Origin: Chthonomonadales bacterium
GTDB taxonomy: Bacteria; Armatimonadota; Chthonomonadetes; Chthonomonadales; CAJBBX01
DNA: 26,944 nt
Assembly: GCA_037443035.1 (NCBI GenBank)
Contig: JBBIPC010000026.1
Location: 15,172 to 42,115 of the forward strand
Direction of reading: 5' to 3'
Shown here: positions 1,677 to 25,983 of the stretch, one piece after another
How the letters are laid out: every line of letters starts with the position of its first letter
Numbering within the stretch: position 1 is the stretch's first letter
Translations under genes and position numbers: made by a program
Notes under the pieces: model-generated
The model's input: only the letters and a program-made list of their open reading frames with translations
Told to the model about the DNA's origin: nothing
The model's database searches: none

Positions 1677-1918
1677 AGCAATCTCTCTTTCTGCGTCGTA
1701 CCAGCGGTTCCTGCTGGCTACGTCCAGCAGATGCGTAAGGTCGCGCGCCGCCAGCATCTGACAAGATCGCGGACGAGACGAGCAATCATCCACTGTCGCT
1801 GTACGCGCCTGCAGCCGGAGCACCGAACGCAGTGGATCCGTACTATGCGTCAAGCGGATGTCACCGGCAGATCGTCGGTGCCGACTTCCGCGCTACTAGC
1901 GCCTCATGCGAGGAGAGT

Positions 1919-2767
1919 ATGGGATCCATTGTCTCGAAGCAAGATCTCGATTTCTTCACCGAGAACGGTTTTCTGACTGCCCGGCGCCTGCTCAGCGATG
2001 AAGAGGTCGCCGTCCTACGCTCACGATGTTTCGAAATCCTCGAGGGCAGGGGCTCTCGGAAGCCGGAGTCGGTGCGGAATCTGTACGGCGACGAAGAGAA
2101 GGTCGTCATCCAGATCGTCAACGCCTGGGAGGCCGATGATCGGTTCTACCGCTACCTGTTTCACCCCGCTCTTACGGAAGCGGTAGCGTTGCTCATGGCA
2201 ACCGACACTGTTCGGGTCTGGCATGATCAGGTGCAGTACAAGCCGCCACGCAAGGGTGGTCCCACGGTGTGGCACCAGGATCATCCTTACTGGCCCGTGC
2301 TCCAACCGGCAGATCTGGTCAGCGCATGGCTGGCGCTGGAGGACGCGGATGTGGAGAACGGCTGCATGCACGTGGTTCCTCGAAGTCATCGTTGGGGGCC
2401 CTACGACGGTGGCACCGTGGGCATCCGGGAAGAGGACTGGGGGCCGGACTATGACCCGACGTTCGTCCCCGCAGGTGAGGTTGTGGAGATCGTTCCCTGC
2501 CCTGTCCGTGCCGGAGAAGTCATGTTCCACCATTGCCTCACGTGGCACGGTACACCGCCCAACCGAAGCGAGCGAGGTCGTCCCGGCTTCGCGGTTCATT
2601 TCATGCCGGGCCACACGCGCTATGTGCCGCGCGCTGGTCATCTCATCGAGCACCGCATCACAGTCCAGCCCGGAGAGATCCTACAGGGGGAGTACTTCCC
2701 TACTGTGTGGGACCATGGCCCTGTCGTCCCTCCGCCTCACGTGGCGGATCAGGAGGCGCGAAAATGA
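1919..2767 (+). CDS. Phytanoyl-CoA dioxygenase (PhyH) family Fe(II)/2-oxoglutarate dioxygenase (~282 aa)
   Basis: RBS gaggag before ATG 1919. Motifs FFTENGF, WHQD (HxD), WLALEDADVENGCM, distal His in WHGTPPN and a following Arg. Confidence 0.9.
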   Translation: MGSIVSKQDLDFFTENGFLTARRLLSDEEVAVLRSRCFEILEGRGSRKPESVRNLYGDEEKVVIQIVNAWEADDRFYRYLFHPALTEAVALLMATDTVRVWHDQVQYKPPRKGGPTVWHQDHPYWPVLQPADLVSAWLALEDADVENGCMHVVPRSHRWGPYDGGTVGIREEDWGPDYDPTFVPAGEVVEIVPCPVRAGEVMFHHCLTWHGTPPNRSERGRPGFAVHFMPGHTRYVPRAGHLIEHRITVQPGEILQGEYFPTVWDHGPVVPPPHVADQEARK

Positions 2768-3549
2768 ACCTCGACAGCATCGTGACGGACGAGCACGTTG
2801 CATTCTTCCGTCAGAACGGGTTCGTGCAGTTGGAGCGCGTGCTCACGCCAGAAGAACTCTCCGCCATACGCGCGGCGGCTGACGATGTGCTCTCGCGTCG
2901 CTATGACGCGCGTATCGACACTTCGGCGGCCAATCCGGAATACGAGAAGGTCTTCGTTCAGAAGGTGAACCTCTGGCGGGTGCACGACGGCATCCGCGAA
3001 TACGTTCTGAGACCCAGACTTGCCGAGATCGGGCGCCGGCTCCTGGGCGTGCCAGCGGTACGCTTATGGCACGATCAGCTTCTGACCAAGATGCCTGGCG
3101 ATAGCAAGCCTTCGCCATGGCATCAGGACCGACCCTACTGGCCCATGATCGGCTACAGTCAGCTATCCTGCTGGATGGCGCTGGACGATGTGGACGAGCA
3201 AAACGGCTGCATGCAGTTTCTGCCGGGAACGCACCTCTGGGGAGAGCTGGAACCTGTGAACCTGGTGACGCCGCAAGATCTTCGCGACGTCGCAGGCGAG
3301 CGCGAGATTCCAGATCCCTACGTTGCACGGCTCAGCGCAGGAAGCTGCACGTTCCACCATTCCCTGACGTTTCACTACGCTGGCCCGAACCGCACCGAGC
3401 GTCCCCGGCGTGCGCTCGTCACAATCTACATGGCGGATGGCACGGGCTACAACGGTCGTGGCCACGTGGTGACCGATGGCCTCGGCTTGCCAGTGGGCGA
3501 GCCACTCCAAGGGGAGCTGTTCCCAGTACTCGCTTCTGCCGAGGTCTGA
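2764..3549 (+). CDS. Second PhyH family dioxygenase (~261 aa)
   Basis: ATGA overlap with the upstream stop and RBS aggagg. Motifs FFRQNGF, WHQD, WMALDDVDEQNGCM and FHYAGPN..RPRR. Confidence 0.9.
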   Translation: MNLDSIVTDEHVAFFRQNGFVQLERVLTPEELSAIRAAADDVLSRRYDARIDTSAANPEYEKVFVQKVNLWRVHDGIREYVLRPRLAEIGRRLLGVPAVRLWHDQLLTKMPGDSKPSPWHQDRPYWPMIGYSQLSCWMALDDVDEQNGCMQFLPGTHLWGELEPVNLVTPQDLRDVAGEREIPDPYVARLSAGSCTFHHSLTFHYAGPNRTERPRRALVTIYMADGTGYNGRGHVVTDGLGLPVGEPLQGELFPVLASAEV

Positions 3550-3684: not shown

Positions 3685-3713
3685 TTGACTATATCGTGAA
3701 CTCATGATATCAT
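3685..3713 (+). promoter_or_regulatory. Sigma70-type promoter of the arsR-tusA-hdr operon
   Basis: TTGACT (3685-3690), 17-nt spacer, TATCAT (3708-3713) with extended -10 TG. An AT-rich stretch lies upstream (3670-3679) in an otherwise GC-rich window. Confidence 0.8.
3691..3710. promoter_or_regulatory. Palindromic operator, likely the ArsR autorepression site
   Basis: ATATCGTGA-AC-TCATGATAT is an 8/9 inverted repeat with a 2-nt centre. It fills the -35/-10 spacer, as ArsR/SmtB operators typically do. Confidence 0.7.
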
Positions 3714-3732
3714 CATGTCCGGAGGCCGTGAC

Positions 3733-4083
3733 ATGATGGAAGAGAGAGCTTTGATCGCCATGGAGGCTCTGGAACGGGTGGTGCCGATGATCCGCACAGC
3801 AGCTCACCCGCTGAGGCTTCGCATCCTGGACTACCTCGAGACTGCGGGCGAGCCACGTACCGTCAGTCAGATCATCGATTGCTGTGGCGCTGCGCCGTCC
3901 TTCGTCAGTCAGCAACTGCGAATCCTCAAGGATCAGGGAATCCTTGCCTGTCGGCGGAAGGGCGCGTACGTCTACTACCACATTGCTGACCGCTCTGTCC
4001 TTCATTTGCTCGCCTGTATTCGGCATAGTCAGGGTCTCGACGACAGATCAGATGCTTCACGAAAGGAAAAGAACGATGGCTGA
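3733..4083 (+). CDS. ArsR/SmtB family transcriptional repressor (~116 aa)
   Basis: HPLRLRILDYL...TVSQI...VSQQLRILKDQGIL..RRKGAYVYY. RBS ggagg at 3721; start 3733 or 3736. Confidence 0.92.
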   Translation: MMEERALIAMEALERVVPMIRTAAHPLRLRILDYLETAGEPRTVSQIIDCCGAAPSFVSQQLRILKDQGILACRRKGAYVYYHIADRSVLHLLACIRHSQGLDDRSDASRKEKNDG

Positions 4084-4324
4084 TCTCAACTCCATTACCC
4101 CCGCGAAGACGGTAGACGCGCGCGCTATGGCGTGCCCTGGTCCGTTGCTGGAAGCCAAGAAGGGCATTGGTGGCGTTGCCGTGGGACAGGTCCTCGAGAT
4201 CCTCTCGGGTGACAAAGGAAGCCGTGAGGACATCCCGGCCTGGTGCAAGAAGACCGGTCACGAGTACCTTGGCTTTGTCGAGCGTGACGGCTACGACTCT
4301 CTGTACGTCATCCGGAAGAAGTAG
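4076..4324 (+). CDS. tusA: TusA/SirA family sulfur carrier (82 aa)
   Basis: VDARAMACPGPLL (CPxP persulfide Cys), GQVLEILSGD and DIPAWCKKTGH. Overlaps the arsR stop. Confidence 0.9.
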   Translation: MADLNSITPAKTVDARAMACPGPLLEAKKGIGGVAVGQVLEILSGDKGSREDIPAWCKKTGHEYLGFVERDGYDSLYVIRKK

Positions 4325-4332
4325 ATTCGGCG

Positions 4333-4758
4333 ATGCGGTCAGCGGATGACCTCAAGATCCTGATCATTACGACAATGATCAGCTCCTATCCGGGCGCGAA
4401 CACAGTTGGCCAGGCACGCCTGCAGTACTCCCCTGGGACGTACATCATCCGCGTGCCAGATCCAGTCCTCTTCCCCGAGGATTTCTATCTCCGGTGCTTC
4501 CGAAAGGGCATGGACGGGATCATCGTCATGAGTTCCGGTTCCGACTGTCCCTACGAGGGTGCCTACCAGCGCCTTTCCGCACGCATCGGCCGGGTCTACG
4601 AGCGGATGAAGGCCCAGGGGATTTCCAGTTCCCGACTCAAGTTGACGACGGTCTGCACGGTGTGCAAGGCGGCCTTCCTCAAGGAAATCCGCGATATGCA
4701 GGAGGCCATTCTGGCCGACGATGGGGAGCGCCCGACCCTAGCCGTGCAAGCCGCCTAG
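4333..4758 (+). CDS. MvhD/FlpD-like (hydrogenase delta subunit) protein with an atypical cysteine pattern
   Basis: SYPGANTVGQARLQYSP..IIRVP, F.KG.DGIIV..DCPY and GI...RL match the MvhD scaffold. Most canonical Cys positions are replaced, and a CTVC is present near the C-terminus. Confidence 0.8.
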   Translation: MRSADDLKILIITTMISSYPGANTVGQARLQYSPGTYIIRVPDPVLFPEDFYLRCFRKGMDGIIVMSSGSDCPYEGAYQRLSARIGRVYERMKAQGISSSRLKLTTVCTVCKAAFLKEIRDMQEAILADDGERPTLAVQAA

Positions 4759-4767
4759 GATTCAGCG

Positions 4768-6099
4768 ATGAAAACGACGACGCGACAGATCCGAACCGAC
4801 GTTCTAGTGGTGGGGGCAGGCATTGCTGGCCTCCAAGCATCCTTGGATCTGGCCGACCAGGGCCGGTCCGTGGTGCTAGTGGAAAAGCGCCCCAGCATCG
4901 GCGGCGCCATGATCAATCTCAGCAAAGTCTTTCCGACTCTGGACTGTGCCAGTTGCATCACGACCCCTCGCATGGCATCCGTGGCGCATCACCCCAACAT
5001 TCAGCTCTTCACACTCACAGAGCTGCGGTCGGTGGAGAAAACGACGGATCGCTTCCGGGCACAGATGGTCAAGAAGCCGCGGTTCATTGACGAGAGCAAG
5101 TGCATCGGCTGCAAACGCTGCGAGGAAGCGTGTACCGTGTACCTACCGGATGAGTTCGAGCACGGTCTCGGTGCGCGGAAGGCGATTTCCATACCCTTCA
5201 CGAACGCCATACCGCAGTACCCGGTCCTTGACGAGGAGAACTGCCTGCTATGCGGCTCCTGTGCCCGGGCCTGCCCGACTGAGTGCATTGACTTCCTTCA
5301 GGAACCGGAGGAGATCGAGGTGGACGCCGGGGCAGTCATCATGACGACCGGCTTCGATCTGACGCCCATTGATGTCAAGCCGCACTACGGAGGTGGTGGG
5401 TTTCCCAACGTCCTCTCTCCCCTGCAGATGGAACGCCTACTCGCACCCCACGGCCCCTACGGCGGAGTCATGCGACCATCCGATGGCCGGACGCCCGACT
5501 CCATCGCCTACGTTCAGTGCGCTGGTTCCCGCGACAAGAGCATCGGAGTGCCGTATTGCTCCAGGGTCTGCTGCATGTACGCGATCAAGCAGGCCATGCT
5601 CCTCTCGGGGTCGCTCCCCATTGCGGACATCACGATCTACTACATGGACATTCGCGCCTTCGGCAAGGGCTACGAGCAGTTCTACCAGAACGCCAAGGCC
5701 ATGGGCATCAACTTCGTGAAGGCCAAGGTTGCGCGCATACGGGAGGATGAAAACCACAACCTCTTCCTTCGCATCGAGCGACAGGACGATGGCAGCGGCC
5801 CCCAGGAGGTCCAGCACGATCTAGTGGTGCTCTCGCTGGGGATGGTGCCCGCCTGGATTCCTTCCCGTGATGGCATCGTGCCTCTGGAAGCGGACAGCGA
5901 TGGCTTCGTCCGTCTGCCGAGTGCGAAGCTGAGACCGAACCTTACTACCATGGACGGTGTCTTCGCGGCAGGCGCCGCCACAGGCCCCAAGGACATCGTG
6001 GACGCCATCACCGACGCTGGGGCAGCGGCCATGGCAGCCTCCAACTATCTGGCACGCCTCGCGGGTAGCAGGGTCGTTACGGCAGGAGCGGTACGATGA
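4768..6099 (+). CDS. HdrA/QmoA-like FAD, iron-sulfur flavoprotein (HdrA1)
   Basis: GAGIAG FAD motif; KVFPTLDCASCI; inserted ferredoxin motifs CIGCKRC..C and CLLCGSC..CP; QCAGSRD; YCSRVCCMYAIKQ; GPKDI. Confidence 0.92.
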   Translation: MKTTTRQIRTDVLVVGAGIAGLQASLDLADQGRSVVLVEKRPSIGGAMINLSKVFPTLDCASCITTPRMASVAHHPNIQLFTLTELRSVEKTTDRFRAQMVKKPRFIDESKCIGCKRCEEACTVYLPDEFEHGLGARKAISIPFTNAIPQYPVLDEENCLLCGSCARACPTECIDFLQEPEEIEVDAGAVIMTTGFDLTPIDVKPHYGGGGFPNVLSPLQMERLLAPHGPYGGVMRPSDGRTPDSIAYVQCAGSRDKSIGVPYCSRVCCMYAIKQAMLLSGSLPIADITIYYMDIRAFGKGYEQFYQNAKAMGINFVKAKVARIREDENHNLFLRIERQDDGSGPQEVQHDLVVLSLGMVPAWIPSRDGIVPLEADSDGFVRLPSAKLRPNLTTMDGVFAAGAATGPKDIVDAITDAGAAAMAASNYLARLAGSRVVTAGAVR

Positions 6100-7994
6100 C
6101 CGAAGCAAGCATCTCCCCGACCCAAGACGATGGTGCCGTTGGCGGCTCCCCACCGCGTGACGGCGTTCGTGTGGGCGTCTATGTGTGTCACTGCGGTGGC
6201 AATATCTCTGACGTAGTCGACACAGCGGCAGTAGCTGAAGCCCTGGCGCACCACCCCGACGTGGCGGTCTCGCGTGATTACGTATTCATGTGCTCGGACC
6301 CCGGCCAGAACCTGATCGTCGAGGATATCCAGGCCGGGCGGGTGAACCGCGTTGTAGTCGCCGCCTGTTCGCCGACTCTTCACGAGACGACATTCCGCAA
6401 AGCGCTGGAGCGCGCTGGACTGAACCCATATCTGTACGAGCATGTTAACATCCGGGAGCAGACGAGCTGGGTCCACAAAGGCGACCATGAGCGGGCCACA
6501 CGCAAGGCCATCCGTCTCACGGCCGCAGGTGTCGAGAAAGTGGCCCAGCAGGAAGAGCTGCATTCCATCGCTGTGGAGGTGACCCACCACGTGGCCGTCA
6601 TCGGTGGTGGGGTTGCCGGTATGACGGCAGCCCTCGCTACCGCCGATCAGGGTATCGGGGTAACTCTCATCGAAGCGGCCGATTGCCTCGGCGGACGGAT
6701 GCAAGAGCTGAACACTGTCTATCCGACCGACGACAAGGCGGCGGACCTGGTAAGGGATCTCGAGGGCCGCGTCACGGCGCACGCGAAGATCGAGATCCTT
6801 CTCGCCGCACGCGTTACCGAGATGGACGGGCATGTTGGCAAGTTCCGGATCGCCGTCCAACTGGCAGATCGGTCCATTCGCGAGATACGTGCCGGCGCCG
6901 TCATCTTCGCGACGGGATTCGACCATTACCAACCCATCGAGGGTGAGCTGGGCCATGGCACAACGCCTGCCGTGGTGACCTTGCCGGAGTTTCAGAATGT
7001 CCTGCGTGAGGCCATGCCCGCCGAGGGGGGATTCACCTACGACGGCCGAGTCGTACGGAGCGTTGCGTTCATCCACTGCGTGGGATCCCGTCAGATCGAG
7101 GGCATCCATGCTCCCCAGCCGGACGGGAAGGTCAATGACTACTGCTCCCGCGTGTGCTGCACAGCGACGCTTCATGCGGTCAAGCAGCTCCAAGACCGGT
7201 TCCCGGAGGTGCTGGTCTACGATCTGCACAAGGACATTCGGACCTATGGACGCGGGCACGAGGACCTCTACGAGCTGGCATCGCGCCGCGGCACGCTCTT
7301 CTTCCGCTTCCCGGACGAGGAACCACCCACAGTGAACGTCCAGGACGGCAAGATCCTGGTGACGACGAAGGACATCCTGACATGGGGAGAAGAGCTGGCC
7401 ATACCCGCGGATATGGTCGTGCTGGCCACGGGCATGATGCCTCGGGATATCAGCGATCTCATCGCCATGCGTAAGCTGCCAGTGGGCGCCGACCGATTTC
7501 TCCAGGAAGTCCATCCGAAGCTCCGGCCCGTCGAAATGGCCAACAACGGCATCCTCCTGGCCGGAGCGTGCCAGGGGCCCATGGACATCAACGAAGCTTG
7601 TGCAGCAGCGCAGACAGCGGCTGTGAAAGCGGCTATCCTCCTAGCGAAGCCTGTCATCGAGCTGGATCCGTTCGTGGCCGAAGTGAACCAGGACCTCTGC
7701 GATGGCTGCGAACTCTGCCTGGCCGAGTGCGAGTACGACGGTGCGCTGACCATGGTGGACGTGACAGCGAACGGCGTAACCGCACGGAGAGCTGTGGTAA
7801 CGCCTGCTCTGTGCGTGGGATGCGGAGCCTGCGCGGCAGTCTGCCCCACACGCGCCATCAACGTGGCAGGTTGGACGCTGGATCAGTTCGACGCCATGGT
7901 GGACGCGATCGTGGCAGAAGATGTCGCCAGTCTTGCCACGTCGGAACGGCGCAGGAAGTCCTACAAGCCGCTTAGCGTCGCTGTCAAGAGCTAG
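6096..7994 (+). CDS. HdrA/QmoB-like FAD, iron-sulfur flavoprotein (HdrA2)
   Basis: N-terminal GVYVCHCGGNI / FMCS / AACSP / NIREQ domain; GGGVAG; HCVGSR; YCSRVCC; GACQGP; C-terminal ferredoxin CDGCELC..C and CVGCGAC...CP. ATGA overlap with HdrA1. Confidence 0.92.
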   Translation: MTEASISPTQDDGAVGGSPPRDGVRVGVYVCHCGGNISDVVDTAAVAEALAHHPDVAVSRDYVFMCSDPGQNLIVEDIQAGRVNRVVVAACSPTLHETTFRKALERAGLNPYLYEHVNIREQTSWVHKGDHERATRKAIRLTAAGVEKVAQQEELHSIAVEVTHHVAVIGGGVAGMTAALATADQGIGVTLIEAADCLGGRMQELNTVYPTDDKAADLVRDLEGRVTAHAKIEILLAARVTEMDGHVGKFRIAVQLADRSIREIRAGAVIFATGFDHYQPIEGELGHGTTPAVVTLPEFQNVLREAMPAEGGFTYDGRVVRSVAFIHCVGSRQIEGIHAPQPDGKVNDYCSRVCCTATLHAVKQLQDRFPEVLVYDLHKDIRTYGRGHEDLYELASRRGTLFFRFPDEEPPTVNVQDGKILVTTKDILTWGEELAIPADMVVLATGMMPRDISDLIAMRKLPVGADRFLQEVHPKLRPVEMANNGILLAGACQGPMDINEACAAAQTAAVKAAILLAKPVIELDPFVAEVNQDLCDGCELCLAECEYDGALTMVDVTANGVTARRAVVTPALCVGCGACAAVCPTRAINVAGWTLDQFDAMVDAIVAEDVASLATSERRRKSYKPLSVAVKS

Positions 7995-8004
7995 GAGCAG
8001 GGAT

Positions 8005-8304
8005 ATGAGCGAGACAGAAACCCCACGATCGAAGAGCAACTACGCCGCCCAACAGATCAAACAGGCCCGGGCCAAGCGGGGCAAGATGGACCCGACCAAG
8101 CTGGAGGCCCACAAACGCAACCGGGAGATCCAAGACGCGATTCTGACGGCCATCGCGGATAGGGCCATGACGGTGCCGGAGATCGCCGAAGTCACGGGCA
8201 TGGATACGCACCTCGTCTTCTGGTGGATCACTGCCATGCGCAAGTACGGGAAGGTTCAAGACGACGAGAAGCGGGGCGATTACCTAGCCTACCGGAAGAA
8301 ATGA
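8005..8304 (+). CDS. Small winged helix-turn-helix protein (99 aa)
   Basis: RBS aggag, ATG 8005. ILTAIADRAMTVPEIAEVTGMD..LVFWWITAMRKYGKV resembles a wHTH. 10-nt gaps on both sides. Confidence 0.75.
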   Translation: MSETETPRSKSNYAAQQIKQARAKRGKMDPTKLEAHKRNREIQDAILTAIADRAMTVPEIAEVTGMDTHLVFWWITAMRKYGKVQDDEKRGDYLAYRKK

Positions 8305-8314
8305 GGTACGAACC

Positions 8315-9430
8315 ATGGCCATCGCGGTAGATCCATCGCTTCTACGCGAGCTGAAGAGGCACGGCGCCTTCGACATATCTGCGTGTTTCCACTGCGGCAA
8401 CTGCACAGCAGTATGTCCGCTCTCGGACGAGGTCGGGAACTTCCCGCGCCGGATGATACGCCTGGGCCAGATCGGCGACCGTGCACGGCTCCTGGGGAAT
8501 CCGGACACGTGGTTGTGCTACTACTGCGGCGAGTGCTCCGACACCTGTCCCCGGCAGGCGGAACCTGGAGAGTACATGGCCGCCGTTCGGCGCTACGCCA
8601 TCGCCACAGCCGAGCCTACAGGACTGGCGCGGTTCATGTATGGAAGCACCCTGGGGCTTCTCCTGATGACGGTCGTCTTCGGTATCATCCTCGGCGCGTT
8701 CCTGGTCGCGGTACGTAGCCCCGGCGAGGCTCAGCACTGGCTGTTTCGCCTGGTCTCCTACCAGACCATCCACAACGTGGGTCTGGGGGTGATGGTTCTG
8801 ACCGTGCTCAGTGCGGTCATCAGTGCCGGCAATGTCCTGCGACGCTTCCTGCGTAACGCTCCCAAGATCACGGCGCCAGCCATGGCCATGGCATGCAGAC
8901 GAACCATGGTCGAGCTGCTGACCATGAAGCGTCATCGGGACGAGACACCGACACCGGGCCAACCGTGGTACCGGAACGCCGCCACAGTTCACTTGACCAT
9001 CATGTGGGGTTTCCTAGGGCTGCTGCTGGCCACTACTCTCGACTTCGTGTTCATTGTGCTTCTGCCGCTGCACATTACAACGTTCTGGCCTGCTCGAGTT
9101 ATCGGAACGGTCAGCGGAGTTGTCATGTTGGCAGGTGTGACGGCTGCGATCGTCCGCCGGCTGACGAAAGCCGAGAAGAACGTGACGAAGACGGATCCTG
9201 TGGACTGGTGGCTCTTGTGGGTTCTCTTCGTACTGGCCATCACTGGCTTCTGGCTGGAGATCGTCGTGACCATCCGGTCGGCAAGCCCCATCCATGACGT
9301 CGTACTGCTCGTTCACGCGGCTCTGGCGATGGAGCTTGTGCTACTGGCGACGTTCACCAAACTGGCCCATGTAATCTACCGTCCCCTGGCCCTAGTCGCC
9401 TATTTCCTGCGCAAGGAGACCTCTTCGTGA
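8315..9430 (+). CDS. QmoC-like subunit: HdrC-type 2x[4Fe-4S] domain fused to an HdrE/NarI-type heme-b membrane domain
   Basis: CFHCGNCTAVCP and CYYCGECSDTCP, then about 6 hydrophobic helices with His in HLTIMWGF, LVHAAL and TKLAHVIYRP. Confidence 0.85.
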   Translation: MAIAVDPSLLRELKRHGAFDISACFHCGNCTAVCPLSDEVGNFPRRMIRLGQIGDRARLLGNPDTWLCYYCGECSDTCPRQAEPGEYMAAVRRYAIATAEPTGLARFMYGSTLGLLLMTVVFGIILGAFLVAVRSPGEAQHWLFRLVSYQTIHNVGLGVMVLTVLSAVISAGNVLRRFLRNAPKITAPAMAMACRRTMVELLTMKRHRDETPTPGQPWYRNAATVHLTIMWGFLGLLLATTLDFVFIVLLPLHITTFWPARVIGTVSGVVMLAGVTAAIVRRLTKAEKNVTKTDPVDWWLLWVLFVLAITGFWLEIVVTIRSASPIHDVVLLVHAALAMELVLLATFTKLAHVIYRPLALVAYFLRKETSS

Positions 9431-9491: not shown

Positions 9492-10070
9492 ATGACAAGC
9501 GAGAAAGAACACATGTCTGCGACGACGGAAACGCTGGCAGCTCAGGTAGCGACGCTTCAGGAAGAAGTCGAGCGTCTCAAGGCGAATGCACCGGACGACA
9601 AACTCTCCATGGTGGTGTTCAGCGGCGATCTCGACCGGCAACTGGCGGCATTTATCATCGCGACCGGCGCTGCTGCCATGTTCGACGAAGTCGTCATGTT
9701 CTTCACGTTCTGGGCGACGCCAGCGTTGCGGGACCCTAAGAAGCGCCCAGGGCCAAAGGACATGATGGCGAAGATGTTCGGCTGGATGCTACCCAAAGGT
9801 GCCGGTCGGCTGAAGCTCTCCAAGATGCACATGGCCGGTATGGGGACCGGCATGATGAAAGGGCTCATGAAGAAGAAGGGTGTTCTTTCGCTGGAGCAGC
9901 TCATCCAACAGGCAGCCAACTCCGGTGTGAAGATCTACGTCTGCCAGATGAGCATGGAGCTGATGGGTTTCACCACGGATGAACTGATTGACTATCCCGA
10001 TCTCAGGGTCGCTGGCGTGGCCAAATTCCTTGCCGAGGCCGGTACGAGCAAGGCGACGCTGTTCATATAG
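9492..10070 (+). CDS. DsrE/DsrF/DrsH-like (DsrE2-type) sulfurtransferase
   Basis: LSMVVFSGDLD, AFIIATGAAAM, MFFTFW, LSKMHMAGMG, VCQMSMELMG (conserved Cys) and C-terminal TLFI. Alternative start at 9513. Confidence 0.9.
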   Translation: MTSEKEHMSATTETLAAQVATLQEEVERLKANAPDDKLSMVVFSGDLDRQLAAFIIATGAAAMFDEVVMFFTFWATPALRDPKKRPGPKDMMAKMFGWMLPKGAGRLKLSKMHMAGMGTGMMKGLMKKKGVLSLEQLIQQAANSGVKIYVCQMSMELMGFTTDELIDYPDLRVAGVAKFLAEAGTSKATLFI

Positions 10071-10210
10071 ATTGTTTCGACTAGTCCTGCGGGCAGGCTG
10101 GGGACGCTGCATGCCTCCGCCGGTGCTGTACCTCGCAGGGGCAACCAACGTGAGCCCGTGTGCCCAACGGCACAACTGGGAACGAAAAACAGGAAGGACA
10201 TGCTGCAACT

Positions 10211-10651
10211 ATGAAGCAAGTGTGCGTGGCCGCGGCAGGCGTCATTGCCGTGCTGGCGGTCACCATTGGTAGTACGCCGGCGGTAGCCACTGACGGGTAC
10301 TTCAGTCACGGCTACGGAACGCGAGTCAAGGGCATGGGAGGCGCCGGAGTCGCTCTACCGCAAGACTCCACATGCGTCGTCGTCAACCCGGCCGGGGCAT
10401 TGCGCGTCGGAAACCGCTACGATATCGGGCTTGCCCTTTTTCATCCGGAGCGTGGCTACCGCGTCGACGGCAATCCCAGCGGAGCACCGGGCACGTTCGG
10501 GCTCATGCCTGGCGGCCACGAGAGCGACAACCTGAACTTCGCTGTCCCGGCACTCTCGATCACCAGGGTGTTGGGCCCGTACTCCGCCTGTGCCTCCACC
10601 CTCGGCAGCCGCATTGTGCATCGCTTCAGGCACCGCGATGGACGCGGATGA
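10211..10651 (+). pseudogene. 3'-truncated FadL/OmpP1/TodX-like outer-membrane channel (146 aa remnant)
   Basis: Signal peptide ending PAVA, then TDGYFSHGYG...KGMGGAGVALPQD...NPAG, the hatch N-terminus of FadL-type barrels. Similarity fades around 10590 and the ORF stops flush against the convergent gene; family members are usually ~400+ aa. Confidence 0.7.
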
Positions 10652-21953: not shown

Positions 21954-22108
21954 GCGGCACTGGGGTTCGCTGGCGATCCCTTGCCACTCGAACCTGCCGG
22001 TAGTTCACAGTACTTCCCTGAGACGGTAGATTGTCGGTACACTGGCATACTCACCACGAGGTGTATGGCGATTCGCGAGATCTACGAATCGCCGGGAGGT
22101 TGACGACC

Positions 22109-24925
22109 ATGCATATCCGCCTCCGTCGTTCGCAAAGCCGATGGGCGGCAGTTGCCATGCTCGTCTCGGCAGCATCGCTGATGATCGGCACGGCCTACAG
22201 TGGCGTGGCCATGCGGCGTGCAGCTCCTCAGAGTACGGAGCCGCGCCGCGCAGAAATCGAGCGCGACTGGCTCGAACAGGAGACGGCCCGTGTGGAAGGC
22301 CGAACCGCACTGACGACGGCCGAAGACGCGGCGGGCGCCTGCGACGGCTGGAAGGATGGCCAATGGGGGTTCCACACGGGCCTCGACGCCGAGCCGTGGT
22401 GGCAGGTGGACCTCCAGACGCCCACGCAACTCGACCGGGTCGTCGTCTACAACCGGTGCGATGCAGCCTCCCGTGCGGACCAACTCTCCATTCTCGTTTC
22501 GGTGGATGGACGGTCCTGGAACCGGGTCTACCGGCATGCAGGTCCGACCTTCTACGGTGCTACGGACGGACGGCCGCTCGTCGTACCGCTGAAGGGTGTC
22601 GCGGCCCGCTATGTGCGTTGCACCATTCCCGGTCCTGCGTACCTGCACCTCGACGAAGTGGAGGTCTATGCAGCAGCCGACCCGGCCACGAACATCGCCC
22701 TGAACAAGCCCTGCGATCAGAGCAGCCTAAGTCAGTGGTCGCGTCCACCTCATCGCCCCGCGCTGTCAGTTCTCCCGCTCGAGGACCTCCTGGAGCGCGG
22801 CCGAAAACTCGTGGCGCGGCTCAGAGCCGTGGGCATCCCCACGACGGATTGCGAGCGGGAACTCCAGAAGGCAGCATTGGCCGCCAACGGCCCTCCTGAA
22901 CAGCGACATCAGGCCTATCTCAACGCTCGGTGGGCCATGCGGCGCCTCATGCTCGCGGACCCGCTCCTTAGCTTCGACCGCCTCCTCTTCGTCAAGCGCG
23001 TCAACGGTTCGTTCAATCACATGTCGGACCAGCATTACGGCTGGTGGTCCCGACCTGGTGGCGGCCTGTACATTCTGAGCGGCTTCCGATCCGACACGCC
23101 TCAGATTCGCCAGATCGAAACCGGCCTTCCGGAAGGCAGCTACATTGACCCGGATCTTTCCTATGACGGCAAGAGGATTCTCTTCGGGTATTGCCGATAC
23201 TATCCGGAAAGCGCCCAGCGTGCCGACAAGACGGACAAGGCCAGCATTCCCGAGGACGCTTTCTATCATCTCTACGAGATCACCGTGGAGGGAACCGGGC
23301 TCCGTCGGCTCACGAGTGGTAAGTACGACGACTTCTCGGGGCGATACCTGCCCGACGGCTCCATCATCTTCCTCTCCACCCGACGAGGTGCCAGTGTCCA
23401 GCATGTCGGAGCTGTCGCCGACGAGGCAAGCCCGCGCCCGGACAGTTTCGTGCGCTGCGGCGGTGACCGGTACCGACCTGTATCGGTCTACACGCTCCAC
23501 AGGCTCATGCCGGACCGTAAGACCGTCATCGCTCTGTCGCCGTTCGAGAACTTTGAGTGGACTCCCAACGTCTGTAACGACGGTCGCATCCTCTACGCGA
23601 GATGGGACTATGTCGATAGGAACAACATGCCCTTCATGAAGCTCTGGTCCACCAACCCGGACGGCACGAATCCGCAGGCGGTCTATGGGAACCATACCGC
23701 TCTGTTCCATTGCGCCTTCGAGGCCCGCCAGGTTCCTGGCTCCCGCAAGATTCTCTTCACCGCGTCGGCGCATCACGCCGTGACCGGCGGGAGCCTCGTG
23801 ATGCTGGACCCGGCTAGAGGTATGGACGGTGCCGAGCCCATTCAGCGCATCACACCGGAGGTGTGTTTCCCCGAGGTCGAGGGATGGCCCCGGTCGTATT
23901 ACATGAGCCCCTTCCCTCTATCGGAGCGGGTTTTCCTCACGGCATGGGGTCGCGGCAACCTGGCCGAGAATCCCACGCGTGGCCTCGGTATCTATGTCGG
24001 CGACACCGACGGCAACCTGGAGCTGCTCTACAAAGATCCGGCCATCTCCAGCACTTATCCGCAGCCGCTGAGGGCCCGGCCCATGCCTCCCATGCCCTCG
24101 GATCGTCTCGCTGAGCAAGCGGACGAGGGGAGGTTCCTCGTCAGCAGCATCACCACAGGCCTTCCCGTGCTGAACCAGCGTATCACGCGTCTTCGGATCG
24201 TCGCCGTACCGGCCAAGACCCAGCCTGAGATGAACAGCCCTAACCTGGGAGTGACCGCCGACGATCCTGGCAAGTGCGTGCTTGGGACGGTACCTGTGGA
24301 GCGGGATGGGTCGGCCTACTTTCTGGCGCCCAGCGGCGTGCCCCTCTTCTTCCAGGCGATTGGCGAAGACGGCACCGCCGTCCAGACCATGCGGACGGTG
24401 ACCTATGTCCAGCCAAGGCAGACAGTGGGATGCGTGGGCTGCCATGAGAGCCGAGCCACGCCGGTAGCTAACCGCCGACCTATGGCGCTGAACCGGCCTC
24501 CGTCTCGCATCACACCTGGGCCGGATGGTAGCTGGCCGTACCGTTTCGACCGCCTTGTGCAGCCCGTCCTCGACCGGCACTGTGTGAGCTGTCATGCTCC
24601 TGGGAAGCATGCGTCGCATGTGAACCTCGCACCTGCCGCGGCCTACGAGACGCTCGTGAGTTACGGACATCCCAGCCTGCGCGAGCACGTGCAGAACCGT
24701 TATCGGGAGGGCAGGTCCATAGCGGGCCAGGGTGCGGCCGCCACGAGCGCCTTGCTGCAGCTTCTGCGGAAGGGGCACCAGGGAGTCCGCCTGGACGCCC
24801 AAGACATGGAGAGGTTTGTTACATGGATGGATACCTACGCCCAGCGGCTGGGGTCGTTCAGCCCACAACAGGAGGAGGAACTGATGCTGCTGCGGCGACG
24901 CTGGGCGGCGATCCTGGCGCCGTGA
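22109..24925 (+). CDS. HzsA-related exported protein: F5/8 type C (discoidin) domain, TolB-like beta-propeller, hydrazine synthase alpha middle-like domain, two CxxCH (~938 aa)
   Basis: RBS ggagg and signal peptide. FHT...PWWQVDL...VYNR...LDEVEVY (discoidin); DPDLSYDGKRILF, DGRILYARWDYVDR; LGTVPVERDGSAYF; CVGCH (24431-24445) and CVSCH (24581-24595). Confidence 0.8.
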   Translation: MHIRLRRSQSRWAAVAMLVSAASLMIGTAYSGVAMRRAAPQSTEPRRAEIERDWLEQETARVEGRTALTTAEDAAGACDGWKDGQWGFHTGLDAEPWWQVDLQTPTQLDRVVVYNRCDAASRADQLSILVSVDGRSWNRVYRHAGPTFYGATDGRPLVVPLKGVAARYVRCTIPGPAYLHLDEVEVYAAADPATNIALNKPCDQSSLSQWSRPPHRPALSVLPLEDLLERGRKLVARLRAVGIPTTDCERELQKAALAANGPPEQRHQAYLNARWAMRRLMLADPLLSFDRLLFVKRVNGSFNHMSDQHYGWWSRPGGGLYILSGFRSDTPQIRQIETGLPEGSYIDPDLSYDGKRILFGYCRYYPESAQRADKTDKASIPEDAFYHLYEITVEGTGLRRLTSGKYDDFSGRYLPDGSIIFLSTRRGASVQHVGAVADEASPRPDSFVRCGGDRYRPVSVYTLHRLMPDRKTVIALSPFENFEWTPNVCNDGRILYARWDYVDRNNMPFMKLWSTNPDGTNPQAVYGNHTALFHCAFEARQVPGSRKILFTASAHHAVTGGSLVMLDPARGMDGAEPIQRITPEVCFPEVEGWPRSYYMSPFPLSERVFLTAWGRGNLAENPTRGLGIYVGDTDGNLELLYKDPAISSTYPQPLRARPMPPMPSDRLAEQADEGRFLVSSITTGLPVLNQRITRLRIVAVPAKTQPEMNSPNLGVTADDPGKCVLGTVPVERDGSAYFLAPSGVPLFFQAIGEDGTAVQTMRTVTYVQPRQTVGCVGCHESRATPVANRRPMALNRPPSRITPGPDGSWPYRFDRLVQPVLDRHCVSCHAPGKHASHVNLAPAAAYETLVSYGHPSLREHVQNRYREGRSIAGQGAAATSALLQLLRKGHQGVRLDAQDMERFVTWMDTYAQRLGSFSPQQEEELMLLRRRWAAILAP

Positions 24926-25983
24926 ACCTGCGGATCCTGCCGCACGACGGATGGGAGGAGATCGTTCTTGCGCTGCCATGCGCGCCAGGGGAGAGTGCGT
25001 CGGAAGCGCTTCTCAGGGCGGTTTCCGTGCTCCATCGCGAGGATGCTGACCTCCTCCGCGCGGTCGTCTTTGGCAGGGTAACACCCCACGGTCAGACCGT
25101 CGTCGGTCCGCGTGGCATTCCGGCAACCTTCATCGAGGGAGCGCCCTGCTCGGAAGGGTTAGTGGCAGGCGTCCAGGTTGTGGGTGCCCGCGGAGTCGAA
25201 GTAGCATGCTACGAAGGGGAGTACGGAGCCATGGCCACCGTGGTGGAGGATCGCCACGCGCGCTGGGCCTATGTCTCCAACGTTGCGCCGAGTTCCCTCT
25301 GGGCGCCACCAGGCATGCAGGCGCGGGAGGCGTTCGAACGGGCCGAAGCGACGTTACGGCTGGCGGGCATGGGCTTTGAGCATGTCTATCGCACATGGCT
25401 CTTCGTGGAAGACATTTTGGGGTGGTATGGCGACCTCAACAGGGTGAGGACCGCCTTCTATAGCGAGCGCGGTGTGTTCCGGGGAGTCGTGCCTGCCAGT
25501 ACTGGCGTTGGAGCGTCCAATCCCGTAGGCGCAGCCTTGACCATGGATGCGCTTGCGGTCTCGCCCTTGGATGGGCGCATTCAGATACGACCTGTGGAGT
25601 CGCCCCTCCAGTGTTCCGCGCAGAACTACGGAAGCTCCTTCAGCCGGGCGCTGGAAATCGTCGAGCCAGGTCTGCGGCGCCTCGTCGTGTCGGGCACGGC
25701 CAGCATTGGCCGGGATGGGTCTACTTTGTGCGTGGGAGACGTCGCCGCTCAGACCGACTGGACACTGGACGTCGTGGAGGCCATCCTCCGGAGCCGTGCT
25801 ATGGACTGGAGCGACGTCACACGGGCCGTGGCTTACTTCCGCAACCCCTCCGATTGGTGCGTCCTTCCCGATCGCTGGGTTCGGCGAGGGGCGCCCGACC
25901 TCCCGGTGATCACAGCTGCCAGCGTGATCTGCCGCGACGACCTTCTCTTCGAAATAGAACTCGACGCGGCGAGACCGGACTAG
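24922..25983 (+). CDS. Multi-domain RidA/YjgF-fold protein, FkbO/Hyg5 chorismatase-like (~353 aa)
   Basis: GTGA overlap with the upstream stop. Motifs RTW, YGDLNRVR, PASTGVG, ESPLQCSAQNYGSSFSRA, SGTASI and ICRDDLLFEIE. Confidence 0.75.
   Translation: MNLRILPHDGWEEIVLALPCAPGESASEALLRAVSVLHREDADLLRAVVFGRVTPHGQTVVGPRGIPATFIEGAPCSEGLVAGVQVVGARGVEVACYEGEYGAMATVVEDRHARWAYVSNVAPSSLWAPPGMQAREAFERAEATLRLAGMGFEHVYRTWLFVEDILGWYGDLNRVRTAFYSERGVFRGVVPASTGVGASNPVGAALTMDALAVSPLDGRIQIRPVESPLQCSAQNYGSSFSRALEIVEPGLRRLVVSGTASIGRDGSTLCVGDVAAQTDWTLDVVEAILRSRAMDWSDVTRAVAYFRNPSDWCVLPDRWVRRGAPDLPVITAASVICRDDLLFEIELDAARPD

Follow-up and report, generated by a model that had tools for sequence, protein, structure and literature searches.

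An MvhD-like subunit that lacks the canonical [2Fe-2S] cysteine set and carries a conserved CxxC, encoded beside tusA

Related Hdr-like complexes and the operon of the window

The closest described relatives of the protein studied here are MvhD, VhuD and ElpC (chains 5ODC_D, 7BKB_F, 8RVU_F and 9SW2_D), the [2Fe-2S] connectors of the Mvh-, Fdh- and Elp-Hdr complexes. The cluster ligands of canonical MvhD are presumably C13, C42, C67 and C72. Another related system, sHdr-LbpA, uses HdrB-type subunits and lipoate-binding proteins. Methanogen MvhD has an additional cysteine, C16 (PMC13580544). In the solved Hdr complexes MvhD is a connector on the input arm and is not located at the HdrB end (PMC12350162). 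A cysteine pair of HdrA has been located between the mobile arm and the FAD in two cryo-EM studies from 2026 (PMC13580544; PMC13518236). In M. marburgensis this pair, Cys202/Cys205, has the MvhD cluster on one side and the partner HdrA's FAD on the other; in the cryo-EM maps it binds, together with MvhD Asp71, an unidentified ligand; the electron step at the pair was called a critical gap (PMC13580544). The HdrA Cys/Sec pair was also proposed to be a redox-active disulfide relay, comparable to thioredoxin reductase and DsbD (PMC13518236).

Here we describe MvhD', an MvhD homologue encoded in a Chthonomonadales bacterium. The window, the whole stretch of DNA that was analysed, is 26,944 nucleotides long. 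Its gene order around mvhD' is arsR-tusA-mvhD'-hdrA1-hdrA2-hth-qmoC-like-dsrE2, with the following features:

3685..3713, + strand: sigma70-like promoter candidate before the operon, 10 of 12 consensus matches, with TG
3715..4083, + strand: ArsR/SmtB-family regulator (NF033788, 61.5 bits, cut-off 55); start codon tentative
4076..4324, + strand: TusA sulfur carrier, 82 aa (PF01206, 75.8 bits)
4333..4758, + strand: mvhD', 141 aa, MvhD-like subunit without the canonical [2Fe-2S] cysteine set
4768..6099, + strand: HdrA1, 443 aa, with FAD domain, PTLDCASC pair and an inserted 2x[4Fe-4S] motif
6096..7994, + strand: HdrA2, 632 aa, with N-terminal cluster domain and C-terminal 2x[4Fe-4S] domain
8008..8304, + strand: HTH-like conserved protein, 98 aa, a candidate regulator or structural subunit (Atlas look-alikes are ArsR/HTH_5-like)
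8315..9430, + strand: QmoC-like subunit, a membrane domain joined to an HdrC-type 2x[4Fe-4S] domain, with conserved H226 and H352
9492..10070, + strand: DsrE2-like sulfur carrier (PF13686, 167.7 bits); C151 in 61 of 61 sequences

The promoter candidate is a consensus match only, with three such matches found and 1.8 expected by chance. The QmoC-like subunit scores 189.9 bits against NF038018, below the cut-off of 300. HdrA1 has neither N- nor C-terminal arm domains, and its PTLDCASC pair is C60/C63 (4945-4956); the FAD domain of HdrA2 has no cysteine pair. Several other genes lie in the window. Two tandem PhyH-family dioxygenase genes are found upstream of the operon (1832-3549, + strand). Right after dsrE2, a FadL/TodX-type outer-membrane channel gene survives as an N-terminal remnant (10160-10651, + strand), in which residues ~25-136 align to an intact 400-aa FadL of a related locus (L020; 32%, E 6e-9) before the likeness stops; intact FadL-type copies lie 3' of the operon in 28 of 158 loci. 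An ORF at 24922-25983 (+ strand), which by eye has a two-part RidA/chorismatase-like look, follows a gene for a large discoidin-domain-like protein (22031-24925).

The operon resembles that of QmoABC in having two HdrA-like subunits and a subunit that combines HdrC with a membrane part. QmoABC has AprAB as a partner, whereas no aprA or dsrA comes near its cut-off in the 100%-complete genome of the window (best aprA score 24.7 bits against 641.75). In Desulfovibrio MvhD is a domain of QmoB (PMC3333476), whereas mvhD' is a separate upstream gene. The operon also resembles type II Qmo, as described for V. moutnovskia and A. degensii (Neukirchen et al. 2023; PMC10504309); type II Qmo occurs with or without Apr and Dsr, and the authors called its function unclear. 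We infer that the operon is probably type-II-Qmo-like from the V. moutnovskia homologue WP_048057085.1 and from the gene order of five loci (L081-L085), which are 80-84% identical to the cluster representative of that protein and are similarly arranged. The sHdr-LbpA complex always occurs with TusA and DsrE, and TusA interacts with sHdr proteins (PMC11094781); the operon studied here differs from it in combining MvhD' and a QmoC-like subunit with no HdrB, in place of HdrB-type subunits and lipoate-binding proteins.

The available text of PMC10504309 mentions neither MvhD, its cysteines nor a tusA linkage, and its supplementary spreadsheet has no match for MvhD, FlpD, TusA or 'type II'. The cysteine pattern reported below is not described in the available parts of PMC12142623, PMC4911364, PMC7174415, 10.1101/197269, PMC11237513 and PMC6085437. 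In a literature search with incomplete coverage of the related Qmo/Hdr papers, we found no description of the cysteine rewiring of MvhD'. MvhD' is a real, conserved protein of a known family, and its cysteine rewiring is apparently undescribed.

Residues and predicted fold of MvhD'

MvhD' matches PF02662 (MvhD/FlpD) with 59.3 bits (cut-off 22.3) over model positions 1-119 of 123. It can be aligned over nearly its full length to six solved MvhD/ElpC sequences (9sw2_D, E 1.5e-12), and a comparison with the canonical MvhD of its own genome gives 98.5% in hhalign. In the alignments to the solved chains and to the genome's canonical MvhD, CCNWCSY reads TTMISSY, RVMCSG reads RVPDPV, GCHHGDCHY reads SS-GSDCPY, one residue shorter, and WISASE reads TVCTVC. 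C13, C16, C42 and C67 correspond to T14, S17, D43 and S68, and C72 is the sole canonical cysteine left; at the four positions that define the canonical [2Fe-2S] site (C13, C42, C67 and C72), MvhD' has T14, D43, S68 and C72. The shortened loop before D71 has no His, and His68 of canonical MvhD is absent. The residues of interest are:

4459..4461, + strand: D43, which takes the place of canonical C42; this position is D/C/S/A in the window's branch and Cys in the sister branch described below
4543..4548, + strand: D71-C72, a conserved Asp and the only surviving canonical cysteine
4654..4665, + strand: the CxxC (C108-T-V-C111), in the loop after strand 4 and just before the last helix

The remaining cysteine, C55, is not conserved (67 of 121 aligned homologues; 19 of 79 locus rows). 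No match to the CCG domain (PF02754) was found in MvhD' by a Pfam profile search. An earlier note on this DNA had reported the cysteine losses (TMISSY, RVPDPV and SSGSDCPY, with one canonical Cys left), a CTVC at 4654-4665 in place of the WISASE-like segment, and an intact ORF directly after tusA. The alignments to the solved MvhD chains bear out the losses, the coordinates of the CTVC are exact, and the ORF (141 aa) is intact and starts 8 bases 3' of the tusA stop.

An AlphaFold2 (AF2) model of MvhD' built with 38 sequences has a pLDDT of 80.9 (below 50 for residues 18-27) and consists of four strands and four helices. C108 and C111 are predicted between the strand of residues 102-105 and the helix of residues 112-129, placing the CxxC at a helix N-terminus, an arrangement common to thioredoxin-type and metal sites and hence non-discriminating. 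All candidate ligands are located just after strand ends in the model. A Foldseek search at E<=0.001 returned four matches, all of them MvhD/ElpC with TM 0.73-0.74 (5odc_D, E 3.3e-9, TM 0.74), and lumazine synthases came next. In a wide fold search the best match was again a lumazine synthase with Z 8.3, in the range of common alpha/beta arrangements, and periplasmic binding, receiver and B12-binding domains, which have flavodoxin-like alpha/beta folds, were also listed. No thioredoxin or HdrB chain was among the fold matches listed for the model. The fold matches listed for MvhD' are thus MvhD and flavodoxin-like proteins, and among them the 'thioredoxin-like fold' of the earlier note finds no support.

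By sequence and predicted fold MvhD' is a member of PF02662, and it stands outside the canonical [2Fe-2S] ligand set. Like MvhD, VhuD and ElpC, it has the PF02662 sequence, the predicted fold (TM 0.73-0.74), Asp71, Cys72 and a linkage to hdrA. Unlike them, it lacks C13, C16, C42, C67 and His68 and has the CxxC in place of WISASE. It is also almost never encoded beside a hydrogenase-like gene; tusA adjoins it instead.

Conservation and gene context of the CxxC subfamily

In an alignment of MvhD' with the best 120 of 300 hits (121 rows, one hit being the window's own protein), D71, C72, C108 and C111 are present in every row and the replacement residues are nearly fixed (T14 in 120, S17 in 121, D43 in 118 and S68 in 121). 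Among genome loci, C108/C111 are found in all 79 rows formed by the window and 78 loci of its branch, and in all 159 locus rows when both branches of the subfamily described below are counted; the CxxC is the sole cysteine element kept throughout. Residue 71 is D or E in all 159. C72 is present in 73 of the 79 rows and is S or N in the other six. Position 43 varies across the subfamily (D, C, S or A), and so does position 72 (C, S, N or G; C, S or N within the window's branch). Four loci, Chloroflexota among them (L074-L077), have S43/S72 and the CxxC as the sole remaining cysteine element, and P0125 and the long-branched P0131 have the CxxC and no other site cysteine. The CxxC is constant while the old cluster site erodes around it. 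DCPY and the CxxC had both been put forward as possibly invariant motifs; the CxxC is (159/159 rows), and DCPY is not, with C72 lost in 6 of 79. In the 78-locus alignment, once recognisable cluster motifs are set aside, invariant cysteines are limited to those of the CxxC, TusA C20, DsrE C151 and HdrA1 C60/C63. TusA C20 (4133-4135) is found in 78 of 78 loci, and TusA C57 is variable.

Patterns with C108/C111-type cysteines were among the seeds of the locus searches. A HMMER search run without a word index served as a cross-check on this seeding and gave 151 aligned stretches, 75 of which do not cover the CxxC site. The CxxC is present in 39 of the 76 that do; the other 37 are 31 canonical-type MvhD proteins, five members of a separate degenerate group and one broken fragment. 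The five (P0213, P0237, P0247, P0251 and P0253) form an MvhD group with long branches, in which most of the cluster cysteines are gone and no CxxC is present, and their MvhD domains sit inside larger proteins.

A decaying MvhD with chance cysteines would fit the patchy occurrence of the gene: of 40 related genomes, 10 have a copy that is 72-86% identical, whereas the only genome of the same genus gave no match, and the operon is therefore accessory. Decay is refuted by conservation. The dN/dS of mvhD' is 0.045-0.18 in five pairs with close loci (a sixth pair was saturated), and both cysteine codons are used at each CxxC cysteine position. Since dN/dS is low and C108/C111 are invariant across many phyla, MvhD' is not decaying, and the probability left for this explanation is practically nil. 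The view of the earlier note that the protein has been repurposed stands, with the CxxC invariant in every locus row.

A quick IQ-TREE analysis, with SH-aLRT support only, covered 86 rows and 128 columns (49 full-coverage representatives and 37 hand-picked locus rows, including the window). The 50 CxxC rows fall in one group (SH-aLRT 91), apart from 30 canonical rows (100), and this group divides into two branches (99 and 94). The CxxC is the mark of one MvhD subfamily. The branch without the window, here called the sister branch, has C44, C73, C79, C110 and C113 in 121 of 121 rows, D20 in 121 and D69 in 120; it includes the V. moutnovskia (Vulcanisaeta moutnovskia) protein WP_048057085.1 and proteins named from Caldivirga, Odinarchaeota, Nitrososphaerota and Aminicenantes. 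One protein, P0162, combines the CxxC with four old-site cysteines and lies outside the CxxC group in the tree, in a position that is not firm. The five-Cys sister branch was also considered as a CCG-like domain, a candidate we rejected (hhalign to HdrB 6.7%).

Gene context is similar in both branches. The 78 genome loci of the window's branch contain tusA in 77, hdrA1 in 77, hdrA2 in 72, hth in 68, qmoC in 67, dsrE in 60 and arsR in 52, many of the absences being due to short contigs; the 80 sister-branch loci contain tusA in 75 and hdrA1 in 77. The 98-aa HTH-like gene between hdrA2 and qmoC, which encodes no conserved cysteine, is also found in 36 of the 80. Over all 158 loci, tusA lies within 600 bp of mvhD' in 151, also where the gene order differs, which substantiates the tie between the CxxC protein and tusA drawn in the earlier note. 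It is farther away in one locus and missing in six, three of these at a contig edge. MvhG-like and MvhA-like genes occur in one locus each; a partner of this kind may still be encoded elsewhere in a genome. Hosts of the operon of the window's branch include Armatimonadota, Elusimicrobiota, FCPU426, Fibrobacteres, Spirochaetes, Chloroflexota and Acidobacteriota, and the CxxC subfamily operon also occurs in several archaeal groups. Its MvhD' is mostly annotated 'hydrogenase iron-sulfur subunit', so genomes may be credited with hydrogenase or sulfate-reduction functions that are absent there, and a sulfur-handling route may go unrecognised in genomes that hold the operon. The genome of the window has in addition a separate canonical hdrC-hdrB-hdrA-mvhD-mvhG-mvhA locus (G000:C4:120229-125596, L079), whose MvhD keeps all cysteines and is a built-in control. 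A search of this genome gave no YeeE/YedE match and one rhodanese-domain match.

The two HdrA proteins split their parts, with the cysteine pair and a lysine in one and the arm domains in the other. A PTxDCxxC pair is present in HdrA1 in 153 of 159 ORFs, the other six having no pattern match. The lysine after the CC motif of HdrA1, which we take to be the bifurcation-linked K409, is found in 131 of 131 matched sequences (28 unmatched) and in 0 of 113 matched HdrA2 sequences. HdrA2 has no cysteine in the pair-equivalent segment in 35 of 35 matched sequences (91 unmatched by the pattern), and none is conserved there in the alignment. The split fits the arrangement reported in PMC13580544, in which the arm of one subunit works with the FAD of the other. 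In some HdrA1 variants of ~900 aa, a module for pyridine-nucleotide binding has been added (L143).

What is encoded at the HdrC end differs among operons, being either a membrane QmoC or a CCG protein, while the tusA-mvhD' end is constant. In two sister-branch loci (L092 and L094) the operon ends in HdrC and a two-CCG HdrB while encoding the CxxC protein, and 15 other sister-branch loci have a short HdrC and a protein with one intact CCG domain in place of QmoC. An example of this protein is L143:13262-14272, in which the first CCG domain is degenerate and the second intact. These loci bear on whether the CxxC protein has taken over from HdrB the catalytic reduction of disulfides at the HdrC end, as would be conceivable from the operon of the window and its close relatives, in which no CCG protein is encoded. 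Related operons encode both proteins, so the CxxC is probably no HdrB substitute; the sister branch has no profile likeness to HdrB in the hhalign comparison above, and the HdrC domain is here fused to a membrane domain. We consider such a replacement highly improbable. The 'standing in for missing HdrB' of the earlier note is weakened by the same co-occurrence and by the location of MvhD on the input arm (PMC12350162).

MvhD' might instead be an adaptor with a structural or regulatory role, its CxxC being a structural Zn site or disulfide, or a persulfide-sensing switch that gates the arm, with another enzyme as redox partner (AprAB where present). The occurrence of type II Qmo both in sulfate reducers and in organisms without Apr/Dsr (PMC10504309) is compatible with such a role, as is the five-row degenerate group, which shows that cofactor-poor MvhD domains exist. 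However, neither aprA nor dsrA exceeds its cut-off in the window's genome, and no Apr-sized recurring neighbour is found among the 22 largest gene clusters of the 158 loci. The operon would then also have no catalytic end except its sulfur carriers. This role is improbable.

A possible dithiol relay between TusA and HdrA1

We tentatively propose, at a probability of roughly 47%, that the CxxC of MvhD' is a redox dithiol which links, by electron transfer, the flavin of a Qmo-like HdrA1/HdrA2/QmoC complex with TusA-bound sulfur. If the homologous Mvh-Hdr complexes are a guide, MvhD' would ride on the mobile arm of HdrA2 and reach C60/C63 and the FAD of HdrA1, which it would face with the same edge as canonical MvhD, presenting a cysteine pair instead of a cluster. 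The gene context suggests that TusA, loaded by DsrE2, takes the place of the hydrogenase or formate dehydrogenase that docks on MvhD. The persulfide on TusA C20 would exchange with C108/C111 of MvhD', these with C60/C63 of HdrA1, and the latter pair would be reduced or oxidised by the FAD. QmoC may connect the FAD with the quinone pool, and the arm may connect it with ferredoxin (NAD(P)H in the long HdrA1 variants). The favoured direction in these anaerobes would be the reduction of carrier-bound sulfane sulfur to sulfide. The sulfur couple lies near -270 mV and ferredoxin at about -450 mV. Menaquinol, at -75 mV (PMC3333476), would by itself be too weak for the sulfur couple; its mean with ferredoxin is close, and confurcation, which has been proposed for Qmo, would be plausible on these grounds.

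The dithiol relay is favoured because the CxxC is the only cysteine element kept, tusA is adjacent, and MvhG/MvhA-like genes are nearly absent. It is also favoured because the HdrA1 pair and D71 of MvhD' are retained and the HdrA pair has itself been proposed as a disulfide relay (PMC13518236). The proposed exchange from FAD through a CxxC to a partner thiol is similar to thioredoxin reductase and DsbD relays, the analogy drawn for the HdrA pair in that article. Unlike in those relays, the CxxC is on an MvhD scaffold and in a separate subunit, and no thioredoxin-fold match was among those listed. The relay is weakened because the five Cys and D20/D69 of the sister branch resemble a metal site, and because V. 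moutnovskia, which reduces sulfate and presumably uses its type II Qmo with AprAB (PMC10504309), holds a member of the CxxC subfamily. Nor does the adjacency of the genes in itself mean that TusA binds MvhD'.

A relocated or shared metal site is a serious alternative, and one that we regard as possible, at about one chance in three. C108/C111 could bind an Fe-S cluster or a metal ion; the further ligands would be C72 and D43 (in the sister branch C44/C73/C79) or, on the other side of the interface, C60/C63 of HdrA1, and MvhD' would stay a one-electron wire or become an S-S-cleaving cluster site. Three Cys and an Asp are a known [4Fe-4S] ligand set. The Cys-to-Asp swap at position 43 is kept in 118 of 121 close homologues and C72 in all 121, five cysteines are invariant in the sister branch, the candidate ligands all follow strand ends in the AF2 model, and the intermediate P0162 holds old-site cysteines and the CxxC together. 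The HdrA pair and MvhD Asp71 bind a ligand in cryo-EM maps (PMC13580544), which would allow a metal to be bound by four cysteines shared between the two subunits. Against such a site, positions 43 and 72 vary and several members keep the CxxC alone. Since the CxxC is retained after loss of all other cysteines, it is not always part of an intramolecular four-ligand cluster; the CxxC-only members exclude a general intramolecular site and are still compatible with a bridge to HdrA1. Such a bridge would be expected to restrain the mobile arm. The two branches may also differ in this respect.

If the dithiol relay operates, MvhD' could be the port through which substrate enters a widespread sulfur enzyme that has not been described before. 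In it, a cysteine chain of TusA C20, MvhD' C108/C111 and HdrA1 C60/C63 would connect the carrier-bound persulfide with a bifurcating FAD, where the electrons of quinone and ferredoxin are split or merged. We put this broader reading forward as rather unlikely. If true, it would mean sulfur respiration or sulfide oxidation that uses no molybdopterin, siroheme or non-cubane cluster, many 'type II Qmo' complexes would serve TusA rather than APS reductase, and the operon would be a natural test of the dithiol role proposed for the cysteine pair of methanogen HdrA. The subfamily is a natural case in which the HdrA pair and the facing Asp are kept, the [2Fe-2S] ligands have been lost and another cysteine pair has been gained, and MvhD' (141 aa) and TusA (82 aa) are directly expressible and testable.

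Where MvhD' has no more than one old-site cysteine left, residue 57 of TusA (4244-4246) is nearly always Cys; in loci that retain two or more, it is mostly Ala. The trend is confounded by kinship, and we set this covariation aside as evidence. Further sulfur-related genes are scattered over the loci. A second DsrE-like gene is present in 59 of 158 loci (e.g. L036:12816-13187), and a small Cys-rich protein with a CGGC motif in 12 (e.g. L034:13189-13521). Other neighbours of the operon are a pyridine-nucleotide oxidoreductase-rhodanese-TusA-DsrE fusion (L041:13634-16162), a YeeE transporter (L073:14178-15089) and, in one locus, sat and TauE upstream (L086:2-2219).
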